A DNA stretch of 32,000 nt from Candidatus Saccharimonadota bacterium (GTDB taxonomy: Bacteria > Patescibacteriota > Gracilibacteria > BD1-5 > UBA6164). How positions within the stretch are numbered: the first letter of the stretch is position 1; every line of letters starts with the position of its first letter. The stretch is taken from contig OZ245922.1 of NCBI GenBank assembly GCA_965229705.1, forward strand, positions 870,001 to 902,000, given 5' to 3'. Below are positions 2,998 through 31,905 of this stretch, one piece after another. The notes beneath the pieces were generated by a model, which saw only the letters and a program-made list of their open reading frames with translations, made no database searches and was not told the origin of the DNA. Position numbers and translations under genes: made by a program.

Positions 2998-5022
2998 ATG
3001 ACTTACTCAAAAGAATCACAAGATCGCATAAAAAAAATCCAAGACCTAAAAGATGCAGGAGTTATTCCTTATGCCCATAGCCTTCAAGGAAAAATAGATA
3101 TTTCTCAAATACAGGAGTATTGCTGAACAGAGAAAGTGAGAGATATTGATACGCTGATGGCGTGAAAGTGTGAAAATACATTTACTACTGCCGGAAGAAT
3201 TATCTCATCAAAATCACATGGAAAACTCACTTTTGCAAAGATCCGAGATAACTCAGGAGATATCCAAATATGTTTCATGCGTGATATGGTATCTTTTCAT
3301 TCGGGGATGCCTCAGAGCCCAAAACTCCCATCTCTAGAAATCGCTGGAGAAATGAAGTCAGCTTATAAGATAGCGGAAAAATTTTGCCAAGTAGGAGATT
3401 ATATTGCGGTAAAGTGAGACCTTTTTGAAACAAAGCATGGCGAGCTGACGATCTTTGTAAGTGAGTTTCAGATCATGTCAAAAGCCGTGAGACCTCTCCC
3501 AGAAAAATGGCATGGGATAAAAGATCAAGAAAGCATACAAAGACAACGATATCTTGATATGATTATGAATGATGACACCTATCAAAAGTTTCGAAAACGA
3601 GCATTATTTTTAAAGTCTATACGAAAATTTCTTGATGATCATGGTTTTATAGAGATTGATTGTCCCGTGCTTGATAATGCAGCATCCGGAGCTGCAGCAC
3701 AACCGTTTACTACCCACCATAATGCTCTTGATATAGATGTATATCTCAGAATTTGTGATGAAATACCTCTCAAAAAAGCAACAGCTGGAAGATTTGAAAA
3801 AGTCTATGAGATGTCAAAAGTCTTTCGAAATGAATGAATTGATCCCAGTCACTTGCAAGAGTTTACGATGCTAGAGTTTCAGGCAGCATATTGGACACTA
3901 GAACAGAATATGGATTTTGCTGAAGCATTTGCTAAGTATCTTGTAGAAAGTCTCTGAATTGATCCAAAAGTTCCCGTAAAAGATACACAAGGGAACGAAA
4001 AGATAGTAGATTTTTCACAAGATTGGGAGCGTATAAACTATTCAGATGCAGTAATGCAGGCATCGTGAGTCGATGTTTCGAGGTTTTCAGCAGAAGATGA
4101 AGAAGAACTCCGGCAGGAGATACGAGCAAAAGGATATGATTGGGAGTGACTCGATATTCAGGGAACGGCAACGATGATAGACTATCTCTATAAAAAGGTT
4201 CTCAGACCAAAGATTGTTGGACCAGCATTTATATATAACTATCCCAAGACAATGCAGCCACTTGCTCGACAGAGTGATACAAACCCTAAAATAGTCGAAC
4301 AGTATCAGGTAGTGGTAAATGGTTGGGAAATCATGAAGTGTTATAGTGAGTTGATTGATCCAACAATCCAAAAAGCAAATTTTGCTGCTCAGAGTGACGC
4401 GCTTCATCGAGGAGATGAGGAAGCAACATCAGGAGATGAGGACTATCTACTGGCTATGGAGCACGGTTTTCCTCCACAATCAGGTTTTGGTATGGGGATA
4501 GAGAGGATATTTGCGATTCTCATGCAAGAGGAAAATCTCAGAGATGTGGTGATGTTTCCTATTATGAAGCCTCTTACAGCAGAAGAAAAGACTTCATCTC
4601 AAACACAACTTGCAGTATCAGTTCTATGCAAGGACTGTCATCTTGAGAAGTGGCAGGAGCTCAATACGGTCTCTCATCTTGCAGCTTCACTTGCTGGGAG
4701 AGAGTGAAAACACCTATTTCTCTATGAGAGTGTGAAGTCTCAAGATAGTCAGGATATTCCGATGAATATGCAAAGTGCTATTATGATACAAGAGATCGGG
4801 ACACAAAAAGAAATTCATGATCTTTATCAGGAGGCTCAACATCAAGGTCTGTCAGTTGTTCCATTTACTCGAGAAATGCTAGAGACGAGTAACGATACAC
4901 TGGTACAAGAAAAAACAAGCAGTCAAAAGTTTGATGAGTTAGAATTTCTTGGAATTATGATTTTTGGAGCAAAAAAGACTGTAGAGAGTCTGACACGCGA
5001 TCTTCCACTATATGGTTCTTAA
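2998..5022 (+). CDS. lysS: Class II lysyl-tRNA synthetase with a roughly 150-aa C-terminal extra domain (DUF2000/PTH2-like).
   Basis: The track ORFs 3475.., 4174.. and 4732.. are all in frame with the ATG at 2998. Motifs FRNE(G=TGA at 3835)IDPSH, QVVVNGWEI, GFPPQSGFGMGIERI. About 10 in-frame TGA codons; TAA at 5020. Confidence 0.93.
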
Positions 5023-5992: not shown

Positions 5993-6700
5993 CTAATTAT
6001 CCATCTCTTCTTCAACGAGCTCTCGGAGAGCCTCAAGTTGGAGGATAATATCTTCTTGTTTTTCTTCAGATATATCATCATTGTCCTCGTATTTTTCGAT
6101 GAGATCATCTATTTTATCTATCACACTTTCGAGCGTATCATCAGAGTATTTATTGAGACTCTTACCGAGTTTTCCACTAAAGCTAGATTTGTATCATGAT
6201 CTTTTTTTGTCTCTTTTTGATCGCTTTTCAGAAGAGTATTTATCCTCAGAAAATGTTTCTCGAGAGAATTTTTTTGTATTTTGTCACATTTTTTCTTCCA
6301 TATCTTCTCTGATATTTTCAAGCTCTTCCAGTGCTTCTGTCTCATTATTGTCTTCAAGGAGCTCCTCAATCTCATCATACATATCTTCCTGCATACTTTG
6401 CATATCTTCTTTGATACTTTCTGCCTGAGAACTCGAAAAACCTCCACTTCTCATTTCTTCCATGAGTTCTGATCGAAGATCTTGGTATTTCTCATAAATA
6501 TCCTCAAGTTCTTCTTGAGTATCATCACTCAGATCAATATCCTCAAACAAATCTTTCATATTTCATCATCCGTATTGTCACATCTTTTGGCTAAAACCTG
6601 AACTTCAAGACTGTCATCAAAAAAATGATGAAACAGGGAGAGTACTTCCAAGGGACAGTCAAACTACTATGAGTAAGGCAATACATTTTTTCGCATTCAT
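5993..6700 (-). CDS. Secreted, extremely acidic (Glu/Asp-rich) protein (hypothetical).
   Basis: ATG at 6700: MNAKKCIALLIVV(G)LSLGSTLPVSS (signal-like). A Gly-rich linker is built largely from TGA codons. It is in frame with track ORF 6284..6559 (..EELEDIYEKYQDLRSELMEEM..) and continues to ..LRELVEEEMDN-TAG(5993). Confidence 0.7.
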
Positions 6701-10488: not shown

Positions 10489-10676
10489 AAAAAAATGTAT
10501 ATAAAAAATAAATTACCAAGAGATTGTATAGCTTTTTAGCGAAATAAAAATAGAAGAAAAAAAGATACATTAAAAAAATGCAGTTTTCTTGTAAAATATA
10601 GTTTTAAAAAAATATTTGGTTATACTATAAAAGTGTATAGTGTATAAAACACTTTTACTATTTTTGTTAAAAATGT

Positions 10677-11903
10677 ATGGTAGAAATAATAGATAAATCT
10701 AAAAATATAATTAAAAGAAATATATTTTCTCGACCTCATTATCTTCAAAAAATGAGCAGTATAGTGAGTGATAAAAATATACTTGTTATTTCATGACAAA
10801 GAAGGGTTTGAAAAAGTTATATTATTCTCGATTATCTCAAATCAAATAACATAGATTTAGAAGAAGTTTTTTATATCAATAAAGAACTGGATTCAAATGA
10901 TGAATTACAAACAAACATAGATTTAGAAGATCTGTTTACAGCTTTTGAAAAAGATAATAAAATAAGATATATTATTATTGATGAAATTCAGGATATAGAG
11001 TGATGGGAGAATTTTATACGAGCCAAATGCAGTGAAAAAAAATATAATATCATTATTACCTGAAGTAACTCAAAACTTTTATCGAGTGAATTATCTAGTT
11101 ATCTTACATGAAGGTATATAAATCTTGATGTTTACCCCCTTACTTATTTTGAAGTATTAGATGTCAAAAAATTAGAAAATTCGAAAGAAACTTTTTTACA
11201 TTATCTAGAGTTTGGATGACTCCCAGAAATAATTTTAGAAACAAATGAAGATTTAAAAAGAAACTATATTAAAAATCTAAAAGATTCTATTGTACTCAGA
11301 GATATTGTAAATAGATATAAAATAAAAGATTATAGTTTTTTTGAGAAAATCCTATGATTTGTTTCACAAAATATTTGAAATATAACATCTCTCAGAAAAG
11401 TAGAAGATTATCTCAAAAAAGATAAAATAAAGGTAAGTCTATCAACTATATCGAATTATATAAAATATCTTGAAAATACCTATCTGATTAACAATTGTGA
11501 AAAATATGACTTAGCATGAAAAAAAATTTTAGAATATAACTCAAAATATTATTTTAATGATCTATGAATACGAAATAGCATTTACTATAATTTCAACTTT
11601 GATATTTGAAAGCTTCTAGAAAACTATGTTTTTAATATTTTACTCAGTAGAGGATATAAAATCTATATATGAGATAAAAAATGACGAGAAATAGATTTCA
11701 TAGCTCAAAAATGAAATGAAAAAAAATATTTTCAAGTGAGTTACCTTATTTCAAGTGAAGAGGTGTATGAGAGAGAATTTTGAAATTTACAACTCATAAA
11801 AGATAATTTTGAGAAAATAGTTCTCAGTATGGATGATGTAAAATTCAAGGATGAATCATGAATCAAACATTATAAAATCTGGGAATTAGAAGGTATTATT
11901 TAA
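10677..11903 (+). CDS. AAA+ ATPase of the AAA_14/DUF4143 type.
   Basis: Invisible in the standard-code track because it has about 17 in-frame TGA codons. Walker A (G)QRRV(G)KS, with TGA at 10794 and 10809. Walker B YIIIDEIQDIE. Later ..EFGGLPEI.., ..GREIDFIAQK... 408 aa; TAA at 11901. Confidence 0.8.
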
Positions 11904-11989
11904 AAATTTTCTGCACGAATGAAAAAATATATCTCTCAGGAGAAAGTGAAGCTTAGGATTTTTAGCAAATAAAATATTGTATACACTTT

Positions 11990-12502
11990 ATGAAAATTAC
12001 AGATATAAAACAGATTTACAAAAATTTATCAGAAAAGCAGCAGTGAGATCTCTTTATAGAGATTTGTAAGTCATTTCCTGAAGTCAAGGAATTTCTTTGA
12101 ATAAAATATGGGGATAAAGAAATCCAAGAAAAACTGTTTAACAACGTGAAACAGAAGATGCAGAAAGAATTTGATTTCAAGTATGTGAATTCAAGATGGC
12201 GATCTTCAGTCGTGAAAAAACAGATATCTGAATATAAGAAAATTACCCAAGATATAAAAGGAGAGATAGATTTATATATTTTATATTTGAATATTCTCAC
12301 TTCTTGTATAAATGAATTTTGAGGCTGGGAAGAAATCATAGATGCTTATTATAATAATTTTTGATATACTGCGAGACTTATTCATAAATCAGGACTCCAA
12401 AAAAAATACAAAGAAGAACTCGAAAATATTGCTGAAAAAAGTCAGTATTATTGATATGGAGCAGATGCTGTATATGACTTCCTTCATGAATTTATCTACT
12501 AA
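11990..12502 (+). CDS. Hypothetical protein (170 aa).
   Basis: MKITDIKQIYKNLSEKQQ(G)DLFIEICKSFPEVKEFL... Open with TGA=Gly; TAA at 12500. No family recognised. Confidence 0.5.
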
Positions 12503-13947: not shown

Positions 13948-14024
13948 GTCACTATAGCTCAGTTGGTTAGAGCGCAGGATTCATATCCCTGAGGTCGGTG
14001 GTTCAACTCCACCTAGTGACACCA
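13948..14024 (+). tRNA. Elongator tRNA with CAU anticodon (Met or lysidine-Ile2; not resolvable by eye), CCA encoded.
   Basis: Acceptor GTCACTA/TAGTGAC, D-arm GCTC-AGTTGGTTA-GAGC, anticodon loop TTCATAT (A31xC39 mismatch), T-arm GGTGG-TTCAACT-CCACC. Confidence 0.8.
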
Positions 14025-14541
14025 ATTTTATACAAAAAGCTAGTGGGAGTTGAGTGGAGGCACTGATTTCCAGTCTGCGCGAAGCGCAAAGATGGAAATT
14101 GATTGCGAGGAATACGAGCAATCACCGACGGTCTGAGAGCTACTGCTTGTGAAGCAAGTTGTAGCGAAAGACAACTCCACCTAGTGACACCAATTTTATA
14201 CAAAAAGCTAGTGGGAGTTGAGTGGAGGCACTGATTTCCAGTCTGCGCGAAGCGCAAAGATGGAAATTGATTGCGAGGAATACGAGCAATCACCGACGGT
14301 CTGAGAGCTACTGCTTGTGAAGCAAGTTGTAGCGAAAGACAACTCCACCTAGTGACACCAATTTTATACAAAAAGCTAGTGGGAGTTGAGTGGAGGCACT
14401 GATTTCCAGTCTGCGCGAAGCGCAAAGATGGAAATTGATTGCGAGGAATACGAGCAATCACCGACGGTCTGAGAGCTACTACTTGTGAAGCAAGTTGTAG
14501 CGAAAGACAACTCCATCTAGTGACACCAATTTATACAAAAA
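14004..14541 (+). repeat. Tandem array of 3 full 168-bp units plus a terminal partial copy. Each unit begins with the tRNA(CAU) T-loop-to-CCA segment plus 16 nt of trailer.
   Basis: CAACTCCACCTAGTGACACCAATTTTATACAAAAA recurs at 14004, 14172 and 14340. A slightly divergent copy at 14508 has CCATC instead of CCACC and one T fewer. The three units look identical by eye. Confidence 0.9.
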
Positions 14542-14542
14542 A

Positions 14543-14579
14543 TAGTTCTTAGTTACTACTAACCAAGAACTATTTTTTT
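14543..14579. terminator. Bidirectional rho-independent terminator.
   Basis: AAAAAA-TAGTTCTTAGTT-ACTACT-AACCAAGAACTA-TTTTTTT. Overlaps the stop codon of the minus-strand CDS. Confidence 0.75.
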
Positions 14580-15640
14580 GTCAGTAATGACAGTCTTTGA
14601 TAAGCTGCTTGAAGAGGAGGAAATTGAGAGCACCTTTCCATGCTCAGTCTAATACTCTGTAGGTTGACATTGGTAGCATCCAAATTTCATCCTCTTACTT
14701 CTCTTACAATATCGTTAAGTATCGTTTCTCGAGCAAAATTTCCTTTTGTGTCACCTTCTTCTTTATTTGCTATTATATCAAATAGTCTTATAGCCTCATC
14801 AACATTTAATGGTTGTATAAGTGTATATCTTCCTCAATAAGTTAAGGAGTCTATTATATCTTTTACAGGCTTCTTTATAAACTCTTCAAATGATATTTTT
14901 TGTACATGGTTATGTACTTCTGTTTTTACTTCTTCAGTGGTTTTTTCGACTTTATCTGCGCCATATGTCTCGTATAAAAATATGAGAAAATCATAACGTC
15001 TCTTATACGCGAGCTGCAGTTTATTTCAGTCTTCATGTTTAGTGAAAGGTAGGAGGTGAGCAAAAAAACTGTATCATTGTCAAAAAAGTCATCAATCTAT
15101 TTTACACTCTTCTAAAATAATTTTGGACCAATTATTATTGATATCTTCTTGAGTCAGATTCTTTAACCATTTTGCATATTTTTGTAGATTTTCAGAAAGT
15201 TTTTTCATAGCATCACGTCATCATTTGAATTCATCTTGATAGCTTTTTTGTTGTTTTGCAAGGTTAGTATTTAATAACTGTAGTGCTGTATCTAACTTTC
15301 ATTTGTACCAGGTGATTCAGAGGTCCATTTTTGGTATTCAATACCCCATTTTTGCTGCGAAATCTCCATGTACCTCGATATGATAGTTTATATCAAAAGA
15401 GTGAGAATTGCCTTCTTTAGAGTAAGAACATGTATCAGTGATAAACTCTGGTCATCACGTAGTTCCTTCCCGAATACATGATACTATATATGTTATAATT
15501 TCATCATTTATATCCTCATGAAAGAAACTCCGTATCTCTTCATTAATTTCAAAGTGTAGTATACGTTTCTTTAGTGATGATTTTTGTAGTTTTTTTTCTC
15601 AAGAATTCTCGTGTACTTTGGGTTTTTCCATTTTATACAT
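14570..15640 (-). CDS. Hypothetical protein (356 aa), no recognisable family.
   Basis: Open from ATG 15640 to TAG 14570 with about 20 in-frame TGA codons. Translation MYKMEKPKVHENS(G)EKKLQ...HLLPFTKHED(G)NKLQLAYKRRYDFLIFLYETYGADK...; the frame was spot-checked codon by codon over 14990-15058. Confidence 0.55.
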
Positions 15641-15754
15641 TATTTAATCATAATGTAAATTATTATATCATGCACTAGTAGTTATGTCAAATTTATTGAT
15701 TATTTTAACATCTCTTATACACTCTATTTTTAAGTATTTTTCAAAAGTTAGAAA

Positions 15755-21337: not shown

Positions 21338-21422
21338 AAAAAAAGAAGAAAGAATATTTTAAAATAAGAGTATTATTCTGTATAATTTCTTAGTGTAATA
21401 GTATATTCTTAATGTTATATAT

Positions 21423-21992
21423 ATGACTCTCCCAACCGAAAAACAAGCTCTCGATCTCGTAGAAAAATACGCTACTTCAACAAAACAGCATCTCCTACAG
21501 GTTGGCTGTATTATGAAATATTTTGCCGAAAAACTATGAGAAGATACTCATTACTGGTGGCTTGTGTGAGTCCTGCATGATATAGACTGGGACTATATTG
21601 AAAAAGACGAAACAAAACATATGGCAGATGATTTTGAAAAAATACTTTCCCAGATAAATGCTCCTGTAGAACTTTTATGAGATATCAGATCCCATGGTCC
21701 TCATCTCTCACATATTTCAGAAATACCAGATACTCTCGTAAGAAAATATATTAATGCTGTCGATGAACTTTCGGGCTTTGTTTGGGCATATTTTCGTATG
21801 ATTCCTTCTAACGATGTGATGGATATCAAAGCCAAGTCGATCAAAAAACGTCTCAAAGATAAGAGTTTTGCTGCAGGAGTTGACAGAGAACATGCGAGGG
21901 CTTGTGAAAATCTCTTGAATATTCCTCTTGAAGAATTTGTAGAAGATATGAAAAAAGCTCTCAATAATCCTTCTATTGAGTGGGAGAAGTAG
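21423..21992 (+). CDS. HD-domain metal-dependent phosphohydrolase.
   Basis: ..HLLQVGCIMKYFAEKL...WWLV(G)VLHDIDWDY.., in frame with track ORF 21798..21992. Four in-frame TGA codons. Confidence 0.75.
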
Positions 21993-29237: not shown

Positions 29238-29312
29238 TCCTCCGTAGCTCAGCGGTAGAGTAGACGGCTGTTAACCGTTTGGTCACTGGTTCGAATCCAG
29301 TCGGGGGAGCCA
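29238..29312 (+). tRNA. tRNA-Asn (GUU), CCA encoded.
   Basis: Acceptor TCCTCCG/CGGGGGA, anticodon stem GACGG/CCGTT, loop CTGTTAA, T-arm ACTGG-TTCGAAT-CCAGT. Confidence 0.88.
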
Positions 29313-29516
29313 TTTAAAATAGCACGAGATTGGCATTAGAGTTTTTCATACTTTATGTTTCTGACTGGATGAGAAGTTTATGCCCCGCAGGGGTAAATCC
29401 AGTCGGGGGAGCCATTTAAAATAGCACGAGATTGGCATTAGAGTTTTTCATACTTTATGTTTCTGACTGGATGAGAAGTTTATGCCCCGCAGGGGTAAAT
29501 CCAGTCGGGGAGCCAT
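29294..29516 (+). repeat. Two tandem 102-bp units plus a terminal partial copy. Each re-creates the tRNA-Asn 3' end (AATCCAGTCGGGGGAGCCA).
   Basis: AATCC.. copies at 29294, 29396 and 29498. The terminal copy has GGGG instead of GGGGG and a different trailer. Confidence 0.9.
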
Positions 29517-29572
29517 AAAAAATTATCCTTAATTTCCCCTCTCCTTTGAGGAGAGCTTTGGAATAAGGTTTT

Positions 29573-29662
29573 GGAGAGATGGCTGAGTGGTCGAAGGCAA
29601 CGGTCTTGAAAACCGTCGAGGCTTCCGGGTCTCCCAGGGTTCGAATCCCTGTCTCTCCGCCA
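29573..29662 (+). tRNA. tRNA-Ser (UGA), long variable arm, CCA encoded.
   Basis: GGAGAGATGGCTGAGTGGTCGAAGGC.., anticodon stem ACGGT/ACCGT, loop CTTGAAA, T-arm CAGGG-TTCGAAT-CCCTG. Confidence 0.88.
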
Positions 29663-29790
29663 TTTTAATATCACAAAGAGTTATTTTATAGTTTTCGTGA
29701 TAGATTGTAGAGAAAATGTGGGATGAGAAGTTTATGCCCCGTAGGGGTAAATCCCTGTCTCTCCGCCATTTTAATATCACAAAGAGTTAT
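29644..29790 (+). repeat. One 106-bp unit duplicating the tRNA-Ser(UGA) 3' end plus 22 nt of trailer.
   Basis: AATCCCTGTCTCTCCGCCATTTTAATATCACAAAGAGTTAT occurs at 29644 and again at 29750. Confidence 0.9.
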
Positions 29791-29835
29791 CCTTTTACTC
29801 CCCTCTCCTTTGAGAGAGATATGGGGTAAGGTTCT

Positions 29836-30292: not shown

Positions 30293-30430
30293 GAGCCGGC
30301 TTTCAAATCGGAAGGCGCAAAAATTGCTCTTTAAAATAAGCAGAATATTAGAAAAAAGTGACACTAAGTGCTTTGGAAAAAACTTAAAAAATCAAAGTCC
30401 TATATTGTAGTATATAATGTAGGCATTACG

Positions 30431-31905
<1,475 letters not shown>

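Follow-up and report, generated by a model that had tools for sequence, protein, structure and literature searches.

Tandem 168-bp units at a gracilibacterial tRNA(CAU) gene: candidate base-pair-guided insertion elements in bacterial tRNA T-loops

What kind of element leaves an intact tRNA gene followed by three head-to-tail copies of a 168-bp sequence, each carrying the 3′ part of that same tRNA? The question is raised by a tRNA(CAU) gene in a 32,000-nt stretch of DNA (hereafter the window, meaning the whole stretch) from contig OZ245922.1 of assembly GCA_965229705.1, positions 870,001 to 902,000 of the forward strand; the organism is named as a Candidatus Saccharimonadota bacterium and placed by GTDB in the Gracilibacteria. 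We hold, at about even confidence, that the array comprises three copies of a non-autonomous, base-pair-guided insertion element in the T-loop of tRNA(CAU), mobilized in trans. The tRNA(CAU) unit is part of a wider class of enzyme-less elements built on the same plan, and this widespread class of small elements in bacterial tRNA T-loops is apparently undescribed.

The target gene (13948-14024, + strand) is an intact tRNA, elongator Met or Ile2, that was called by ARAGORN as one of eight tRNAs in the window and scores 67.8 bits against the Rfam tRNA model. Its last 21 nt (C56 to A76, 14004-14024) constitute the first copy of a segment that recurs downstream. Tandem Repeats Finder delimits the array at 14004-14541 with a period of 168, 3.2 copies, 99% matches and a score of 1055, and an 18-mer from the tRNA 3′ end is found again at 14175 and 14343 and, with one mismatch, at 14511. 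An earlier note on this locus had described the 168-bp array, the decay of its distal copy and the terminator beyond it, all of which stand, and had given the shared segment as 37 nt, a length that we revise to 35 nt: the 21 nt from C56 to CCA plus a 14-nt trailer, ATTTTATACAAAAA. Sequence comparison places three copies of this direct repeat at 14004-14038, 14172-14206 and 14340-14374 and a decayed fourth (C>T, one T fewer) at 14508-14541; between them lie three copies of a 133-nt cargo, referred to as type B, at 14039-14171, 14207-14339 and 14375-14507 (all on the + strand). The first cargo copy has four predicted hairpins in RNA and single-stranded DNA (ssDNA) folds, the second is identical to it, and the third carries one G>A in a stem, which converts a G.U pair to A-U. 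Units 1 and 2 are identical throughout; unit 3 shows the G>A at unit position 121 and a C>T at position 156 that alters the T-stem, and the trailer of the distal copy is one T shorter. The copy number of three is as assembled. Directly 3′ of the array, a terminator-like AT-rich hairpin, ATAGTTCTTAG...CTAAGAACTAT, with a T-run occupies 14542-14579 (+ strand); its stem has fewer than three G-C pairs, and a consensus terminator scan did not return it. The array does not have the form of clustered regularly interspaced short palindromic repeats (CRISPR), as its "spacers" would be identical and equal to the tRNA 3′ end, and no cas genes were noted among the window open reading frames (ORFs) examined.

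The earlier note had proposed that related genomes be compared for empty sites, and these are now at hand. Homologues of Obg led to five syntenic Gracilibacteria loci (L001-L004 and L062) with the gene order Era, DsbA-like, helix-turn-helix, tRNA-Arg (opposite strand), tRNA-Glu, tRNA-fMet, tRNA(CAU) and Obg. In all five the array is absent, and a terminator or the next gene lies directly 3′ of tRNA(CAU); the array is therefore an insertion. In L004 the hairpin ATAGTTCTTAG...CTAAGAACTAT stands 15 nt after tRNA(CAU), and the same hairpin follows the distal copy in the window, which means that 3 x 168 bp separate the tRNA body from its ancestral 3′ context. The distal copy, in this shared context, is probably the displaced original 3′ end of the tRNA with its native trailer, as had been suggested before, and the hairpin beyond it the ancestral tRNA terminator. 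A 35-nt direct repeat beginning at C56, together with the empty sites in L001-L004 and L062, places the array among tRNA-targeting elements.

What the array inserted is structured and non-coding. The window has a G+C content of 35.7%; that of the cargo is 50%, against 36% for the genome. The cargo as + strand RNA is predicted to form four hairpins with an energy of -60.2 kcal/mol (z = -5.3), which exceeds the stability of the - strand (-49.8 kcal/mol, z = -3.6) by 10 kcal/mol; as ssDNA it has z = -5.3. UGA is a sense codon in the window, where stop-to-stop frames of at least 150 aa number 8 under table 11 and 52 under table 4 or 25. The closest Obg homologues are Gracilibacteria proteins (identity up to 75%), and these matches combined with the sense use of UGA indicate that code 25 applies; ORF lists made with table 11 mislead for this window. 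Under code 25 the 168-bp unit has one stop-free frame per strand, neither with an ATG. A non-coding cargo of about 130 bp had thus been correctly described, the earlier account having passed over its structure and the pairing of its 5′ end with the tRNA-derived segment (see below).

A search for other copies of the type B cargo, also proposed at the outset, gave no match in genome, metagenome, viral and phage collections, the source genome not being among them. A relaxed type B pattern had four matches in viral contigs, of which the one inspected lacks the hairpin and looks like chance. Among the sequences gathered, the only relative is a 115-nt insert after tRNA-Arg(CCU) in L004, which has in common with type B a (R)UGGAGG block and a hairpin AUUGC-N11-GCAAU; the window, L001-L003 and L062 have no such insert at their tRNA-Arg. 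Both type B target tRNAs read ACUCC at positions 58-62. Two other core types were seen, namely a 190-nt unit (z = -5.85) after tRNA-Ser(GCU) in L045 (3525-3717, + strand) and two units of about 55 nt after tRNA-Gly(CCC) (4552-4623, - strand) in L053 that contain CCCGAUGAG...AUCGGGACG, neither type with an Rfam match. In all core types the junction lies at tRNA positions 55-58, as expected of the T-loop crossover site that the earlier note had postulated.

The same plan is found at two other tRNA genes of the window. After tRNA-Asn (29238-29312; ARAGORN, Tandem Repeats Finder) come two 102-bp units (29313-29516; Tandem Repeats Finder period 102) whose cores (29367-29400 and 29469-29502) each precede the tRNA-Asn 3′ part; after tRNA-Ser(UGA) (29573-29662; ARAGORN) comes one 106-bp unit (29663-29789; repeat comparison) with its core at 29721-29754, beyond which the tRNA-Ser 3′ part recurs with a 21-nt trailer. 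All lie on the + strand, and the local tRNA 3′ part from A58 closes every unit; in the distal tRNA-Asn copy one G is missing. A 34-nt module, GGATGAGAAGTTTATGCCCCGYAGGGGTAAATCC, is common to the Asn and Ser units and stands directly before the tRNA part, and units with such a core of 25-34 nt are termed type A. Both arrays (29238-29789) lie within a tRNA cluster upstream of the 16S rRNA gene. Another stretch, L021, is syntenic with the window for tRNA-Asn, tRNA-Ser(UGA) and tRNA-Ser(GCU) and has both Asn and Ser units, in other numbers (window versus L021: Asn 2 versus 1, Ser 1 versus 2). Between the two the core is unchanged, whereas the spacers have diverged strongly; in the L021 Ser units a hairpin has lost one C and one G together. 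The spacers that follow the Asn array (29517-29572) and the Ser unit (29790-29835) of the window are alike (TCCTTaaTTTCCCCTCTCCTTTGAGgAGAG...GGtAAGGTT), and they form a hairpin that directly precedes the next tRNA and might serve as a processing signal. The 16S rRNA gene itself (30430-31905), compared with the bacterial model, has several helices short or missing (e.g., model positions 178-200 and 452-470).

Type A units are distributed widely and patchily. The pattern GGATGAGAAG-N(8-22)-GGGGTAAATCC matched 48 stretches in species-representative genomes, and the core alone, GAGAAGTTTATGCCCCGNAGGGGTA, matched 59 metagenome stretches, giving 107 stretches outside the window. Their carriers include Peribacteria, Moranbacteria, Magasanikbacteria, Jacksonbacteria, Gracilibacteria, Paceibacterota and Shapirobacteria and, further afield, Bdellovibrionales, metagenome-assembled genomes labelled Gammaproteobacteria, Oscillospiraceae and Agathobacter; searches of 2.9 million viral contigs, of phage genomes and of plasmids did not find the core. 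The core is almost always preceded at short distance by an intact tRNA and succeeded by that tRNA's sequence from A58, copied exactly. The 56 distinct tRNA-plus-unit loci represent 12 isotypes: Ser (22), Tyr and Pro (6 each), Gln and Asn (5 each), Ala and Lys (3 each), Val (2), and Arg, His, Met and Ile (one each). At positions 58-62 the type A targets mostly read AAUCC, unlike the ACUCC of the type B targets. The statement that no family of such miniature elements was known has accordingly to be amended, since two more arrays lie in the window and more than 100 stretches elsewhere carry units; a description was still not found in the full-text literature searched, which most subscription journals lie outside, and Rfam 15 holds no model.

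This distribution bears on the most mundane account of the array, that it is a local tandem duplication or an assembly artefact without mobility, or cDNA primed by mature tRNA. Units 1 and 2 are indeed identical and their number comes from the assembly, and with the source genome outside the searched collections a second type B cargo copy could not come into view. Against this, three sequence differences mark the third and distal copies, the plan is repeated at two other tRNAs of the window and, in independent assemblies, in over 100 stretches, and the relative of type B belongs to another genome, where it adjoins a different tRNA; we judge the account very improbable. Its cDNA variant is contradicted by the duplicated segment, which flanks every unit of the 56-locus set and measures 16-40 bp. 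At 28 loci the tRNA gene has no CCA and neither does the copy, so that the copy must have been made from DNA and not from mature tRNA; a cDNA of mature tRNA and tRNA-primed reverse transcription were rejected on this ground.

The unit itself can be very small. Lengths cluster at 54-71 and 92-112 bp, with two units counted at seven loci, and the shortest units amount to approximately the core plus the 10 nt or so before it, here called the guide, which begins 1-3 nt from the tRNA end. The duplicated segment ends within 2 nt of the tRNA 3′ end in 41 of the 56 loci. A Shine-Dalgarno-ATG micro-ORF in the type A core was considered and dismissed, being broken in several members (ATA for ATG, frameshifts). 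Longer spacings also occur. Of the two units in L017, each about 1 kb long, the ends are homologous (77 and 132 nt) but the interiors are not related, and one interior contains an ORF with a sub-threshold DUF3592 match; in L091 an AbiEi/AbiEii pair lies between two type A cores; and L086 has an 853-bp unit that contains a secondary insertion sequence (IS). The two cores around the AbiEi/AbiEii toxin-antitoxin pair (L091, 359-1877, in the orientation that puts the cores on the + strand) carry different tRNA 3′ parts, the second of which (AGGTCTTGCTCGCCA) is a decayed version of the L066 tRNA part, and this suggests that the cassette moved between tRNA sites. At six tRNA-Pro loci with near-minimal units, substitutions in the tRNA 3′ part for the most part have counterparts in both the copy and the guide, the L104 copy having drifted at a single base. 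Such mirroring fits either repeated re-insertion or homogenization by slippage combined with selection on the helix.

That helix is a further feature of the type A units. The roughly 10 nt on the 5′ side of their core complement tRNA positions 59-68, changing in step with the tRNA sequence. The run of pairs beside the core has a mean of 2.9, compared with 0.9 for shuffled partners (maximum 1.5 in 2000 shuffles), and with the flanks left free in the search the combination GGAT/AATCC occurred in 49 cases beside the variants AGAT/AATCT, GGAC/AGTCC and GGGC/AGCCC. Among 97 distinct units, guide positions 1-5 form Watson-Crick pairs in 82-95 and positions 6-10 in 48-65, and beyond position 10 pairing is at background. 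In an alignment of 88 sequences, 10 of the 11 P1 pairs show two-sided changes, and compensatory cells number 175 against 86.6 +/- 7.5 after shuffling (reached in 0 of 500), slid registers scoring far lower. The guide helix shows no excess of G.U pairs over A.C, for which reason the data are silent on whether the helix is one of RNA or DNA. The type B guide in the window, GCUAGUGGGAGUUG, is the first 13-14 nt of the cargo (14039-14052) and pairs with C56-G68 of the next tRNA-derived segment with two mismatches, leaving an 8-nt 3′ tail as in type A, a pairing that rests on two sequences. Types A and B of the proposed class share a junction at positions 55-58, a local 3′ copy after the insert, an intact tRNA upstream and a guide complementary to positions 59-68.

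Which of the two tRNA copies is old can be read at one locus, L027. There a 57-nt type A unit is followed at once, on the opposite strand, by the gene of a large serine recombinase, P0241 (2585-4171, - strand; Pfam PF00239, PF07508 and PF13408). Its homologue P0248 (L142, 10001-11530, + strand), 69% identical, ends in ...SCFDMRNGRDSNSRPPA and a stop, the last residues being antisense to an intact tRNA-Asp 3′ part. P0241 aligns with P0248 as far as ...SCLDMRRGWD, continues with 19 extra codons, LPLRGINFSSLLFMRRGWD, that correspond to the 57-nt unit, and closes after the unit with SNPRSF and a stop, matching the P0248 tail DSNSRPPA and stop (antisense to the tRNA T-arm). The splitting of this frame means that the unit entered a functional tRNA whose 3′ part overlapped the recombinase gene. 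As judged from these sequences, the break is at the T-loop, the new 3′ copy lies beside the tRNA body, and the original is the one joined to the old downstream sequence. The crossover at the T-loop, where the recombinase frame is split exactly, is supported here, and the identification of the distal copy as the displaced original both here and by the terminator context that the window has in common with L004. The database annotation of the L027 protein (528 aa) reads through the inserted unit. The protein belongs to a family of large serine recombinases in the candidate phyla radiation (CPR) that integrate in tRNA genes and have a C-terminal tail (...DSNxR...) antisense to the tRNA T-arm and acceptor 3′ strand, so that the element supplies a tRNA 3′ part that overlaps with its own recombinase gene.

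Of the repeated site-specific integration proposed in the earlier note, insertion is borne out by the five empty sites; its attribution to a tyrosine or serine recombinase is not, as no cognate enzyme was found. A motif screen of the unit-bearing loci gave recombinase-like ORFs in three only, L027 and L082 (serine) and L086 (tyrosine; beside the unit, PF00589, E = 4e-27), to which tblastn added the C-terminal end of a second copy of the serine recombinase (L026) and, at 4-6 kb from the cores of L093 and L114, two weak matches to serine recombinases. These enzymes invite the view that the units are scars or minimal derivatives of tRNA islands borne by a tyrosine or large serine recombinase, the core being an element-side attachment arm. 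A block of identity from the T-loop to the tRNA 3′ end, reportedly described by K. P. Williams in 2002 as a hallmark of elements with integration sites in tRNA genes, is present; in L027, L082 and L026 the unit adjoins a large serine recombinase, and in L086 its neighbor is a tyrosine integrase; and the L142 homologue overlaps and supplies a tRNA-Asp 3′ part. Yet the motif screen found no recombinase in the available flanks of the other unit-bearing loci, the 168-bp units have no start-containing ORF where such an element would hold its recombinase gene, and one 25-nt core occurs at 12 isotypes with the local tRNA part, unlike copies carried on an attP. Nor does the core occur in the viral, phage and plasmid sequences searched. 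The two recombinase families are unrelated and one was damaged by the unit, which argues for a shared hot spot and not for a cognate enzyme. The large serine recombinase was in addition rejected as parent on the grounds that the element of its L142 homologue is without a type A core and that the L027 unit, later than the recombinase element, split its frame. No autonomous partner with unit ends was found in the 107 stretches. On balance we regard an origin as integrase scars as improbable.

An enzyme of another kind is present in L086, where the unit contains an IS200-like tnpA (PF01797, E = 3.5e-32). The units might accordingly be derivatives of IS200/IS605 elements, comparable to palindrome-associated transposable elements (PATEs) and moved as single strands by a Y1 HUH transposase, and their plan of hairpin and guide recalls IS608, whose ends are recognized through a hairpin and an adjacent guide; the strong ssDNA fold would suit such transport. 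However, the L086 IS (about 755 bp) sits within the spacer hairpin of the unit, which marks it as a secondary insertion, and as autonomous parent it was rejected because 20 other copies of it have their own ends, follow terminator T-tracts and lack the core. No other tnpA lies near any unit, and every unit is flanked by a target duplication, whereas IS200/IS605 elements make none. This derivation is largely refuted for the L086 IS, and we give it very little credence overall. The IS is abundant in its own right (L086, L122-L141), with TnpA 87-99% identical across many metagenome contigs, most of them ENA assemblies; its ends read TTGGTTGTACCAAAGACAACCCCCGG... and ...CCGGAGGTTTTGACT, and it inserts directly after the T-tract of intrinsic terminators.

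Another possibility, compatible with the guided-insertion reading and conceivable as an additional role, is that the units are genes for structured small RNAs co-transcribed with tRNAs, in which the tRNA 3′ copy provides a processing, stability or CCA handle, the arrays being amplifications and the spread due to ordinary duplication and recombination. The strong folds (z = -5.3 for the window unit, -5.85 for that of L045), the greater stability of the + strand and the high G+C content of the cargo in an A+T-rich background (50% in a genome of 36%) all speak for it, as do the location of units within tRNA and rRNA-leader operons, the invariance of the core between window and L021 amid diverged spacers, and the coincidence, in 41 of 56 loci, of the end of the copy with the tRNA 3′ end, which would befit a functional tRNA-like terminus. 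It accounts less well for shortest units that are barely guide plus core, a tRNA-core spacing that ranges from less than 60 nt to about 1 kb with protein genes, a near-identical core that is patchy across phyla, a unit that breaks a reading frame in L027, and distal copies that decay. Nor is a functional RNA helix favored by the lack of a G.U excess over A.C in the guide. Rfam 15, applied to both window regions and three related loci at gathering thresholds and at E <= 10 and including self-cleaving ribozymes, introns, tRNA-like RNAs, Y RNA and omega/IS605-orfB motifs, matched none of the units. Hammerhead, hairpin-ribozyme, twister and k-turn identities for UGAGAG...CGAAAG and GAUGAGAAG were discarded by eye as their consensus cores do not fit. 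We consider the small-RNA account a doubtful but substantial competitor, the foremost of the rival accounts.

In the guided insertion element that we favor as the working model, each unit opens with a replacement of tRNA C56-CCA and the 14-nt trailer, which leaves the tRNA gene intact, and its remainder is the 133-nt non-coding cargo, with four predicted hairpins whether as + strand RNA or as ssDNA. The predicted fold is closed by the helix between the first 13 nt of the cargo, the guide, and positions 56-68 of the next tRNA-derived segment. The sequences themselves show the insertion and its layout, the junction in the T-loop, the pairing of the guide, with covariation in type A, and the breadth of the distribution. 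In the model the guide would select the target by base pairing, and insertion would be catalyzed by an enzyme acting in trans or by the RNA itself, the original tRNA 3′ end being displaced downstream, where it would be free to decay. The regenerated T-loop would still present a target, such that the array could grow either by more insertion beside the tRNA or by slippage between the direct repeats, the present array being compatible with both. Should the units represent a new kind of element, it would consist of protein-less modules from about 55 bp upward, in which a guide of about 10 nt pairs with the 3′ strand of the T-stem and acceptor, insertion occurs in the T-loop with exact 3′ duplication, and catalysis falls to a universal host enzyme or to the folded nucleic acid; a weaker version would see in them tRNA-tailed structured RNAs with a 25-nt core. 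We advance this proposal tentatively, with less assurance than the model for the array itself.

Several points weigh against the model. No recombinase or transposase was found among the window ORFs (seven by Pfam, the rest by translation, tblastn and a motif screen), which confirms the earlier observation that the window is without an integrase, and an all-against-all comparison of flanking ORFs in L006-L053 revealed no protein family that recurs beside units; what does recur there is limited to ABC transporters and apparent SLH-domain proteins, the latter judged from sequence. The conservation of the core between window and L021 in the face of diverged spacers could reflect an RNA function in place and not mobility. 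The type B relative in L004 is weak, a 27-nt match with a BLAST E of 1.1, and convinces only by its location inside another unit. No tested mechanism explains both the terminal end of the duplication (41 of 56 loci) and the constant match to the local tRNA: a fixed staggered cut does not account for a duplication that stops at the tRNA terminus both with and without an encoded CCA, and a tRNA part carried by the element is not easily reconciled with the data because both copies match the local tRNA, as they do even where guide pairing is 4-5 bp. Finally, neither excised forms nor new insertions were observed.

The surroundings of the tRNA(CAU) array hold other features. Between the array terminator and obg, a 357-aa ORF without a Pfam match occupies 14573-15643 (- strand), and at 10671-12499 (+ strand) an AAA_14/DUF4143 ATPase and a 170-aa ORF adjoin tRNA-Arg(CCU). 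Both blocks are absent from the syntenic L001 and L004 and form small islands beside the tRNA cluster, at which no direct repeats were found. Tandem Repeats Finder also gave short tandem repeats of two copies each at 6380-6420 (period 21) and 21380-21424 (period 19).

tRNA genes are classic landing sites for islands and prophages, and to our knowledge all known integrations into them need an integrase encoded by the element. Here an intact tRNA, a displaced 3′ end and tandem accumulation are associated with units that carry no enzyme and can measure as little as 54 bp. Were the guide to select the target, the units would amount to a natural, minimal and programmable insertion system and to a new origin of structural variants in tRNA and rRNA operons; they are concentrated in the CPR, a large and mostly uncultured bacterial group with small genomes. 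Even with an ordinary mechanism, the units create pseudo-tRNA fragments and extend neighboring frames (the 528-aa recombinase in L027 is a case in point), and they confuse tools that delimit islands by tRNA fragments.

How the units relate to known systems can be considered in turn. Like miniature inverted-repeat transposable elements and PATEs they are tiny, non-coding, structured and multicopy, presumably moved in trans, and combine a hairpin with an adjacent guide-like sequence; they differ in having no terminal inverted repeats, in their strict T-loop specificity and in a duplication of 16-40 bp that is set by the tRNA end and is not fixed and short or lacking. From the IS200/IS605-PATE group they are further set apart by the target-site duplication and by the lack of a Y1 HUH partner. 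With integron cassettes and attC sites they have in common same-orientation arrays at a fixed site, units that end in a foldable, imperfect, bulged hairpin, and a cargo that ranges from none to single genes (L017, L091), whereas here there is no IntI-type integrase, the site is a tRNA T-loop, the target duplication is long and there is no R/L box consensus. Group I tRNA introns and IStrons likewise present a structured RNA-like insert, an internal guide that pairs with the flanking target and a harmless insertion; the units, however, lie in the T-loop and not the anticodon loop, restore the tRNA through a duplicated 3′ part and not by splicing, and are far below intron size. The YrlA Y RNA, mascRNA and 3′ external transcribed spacer RNAs resemble them as non-coding RNAs with tRNA-derived or tRNA-like ends that are encoded or processed with tRNAs, while in the present units the tRNA portion is limited to the 3′ strand of the T-stem and acceptor stem, copied exactly from the neighboring tRNA; the units moreover stand in tandem and do not match the Rfam models.

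Among the closest parallels are tRNA-targeting integrative elements and their non-autonomous derivatives: genomic islands, cis-mobilizable elements (CIMEs) and tandem accretion in streptococci, and tycheposons. As in those systems, insertion takes place at a tRNA, the 3′ part is restored and the original is displaced as a direct repeat; elements accumulate in tandem at one tRNA, and empty sites are found in relatives. Unlike them, the units measure 54-170 bp and not kilobases, have no integrase inside or beside them, and present one 25-nt core across phyla at 12 isotypes, with a guide that covaries with the tRNA it adjoins.

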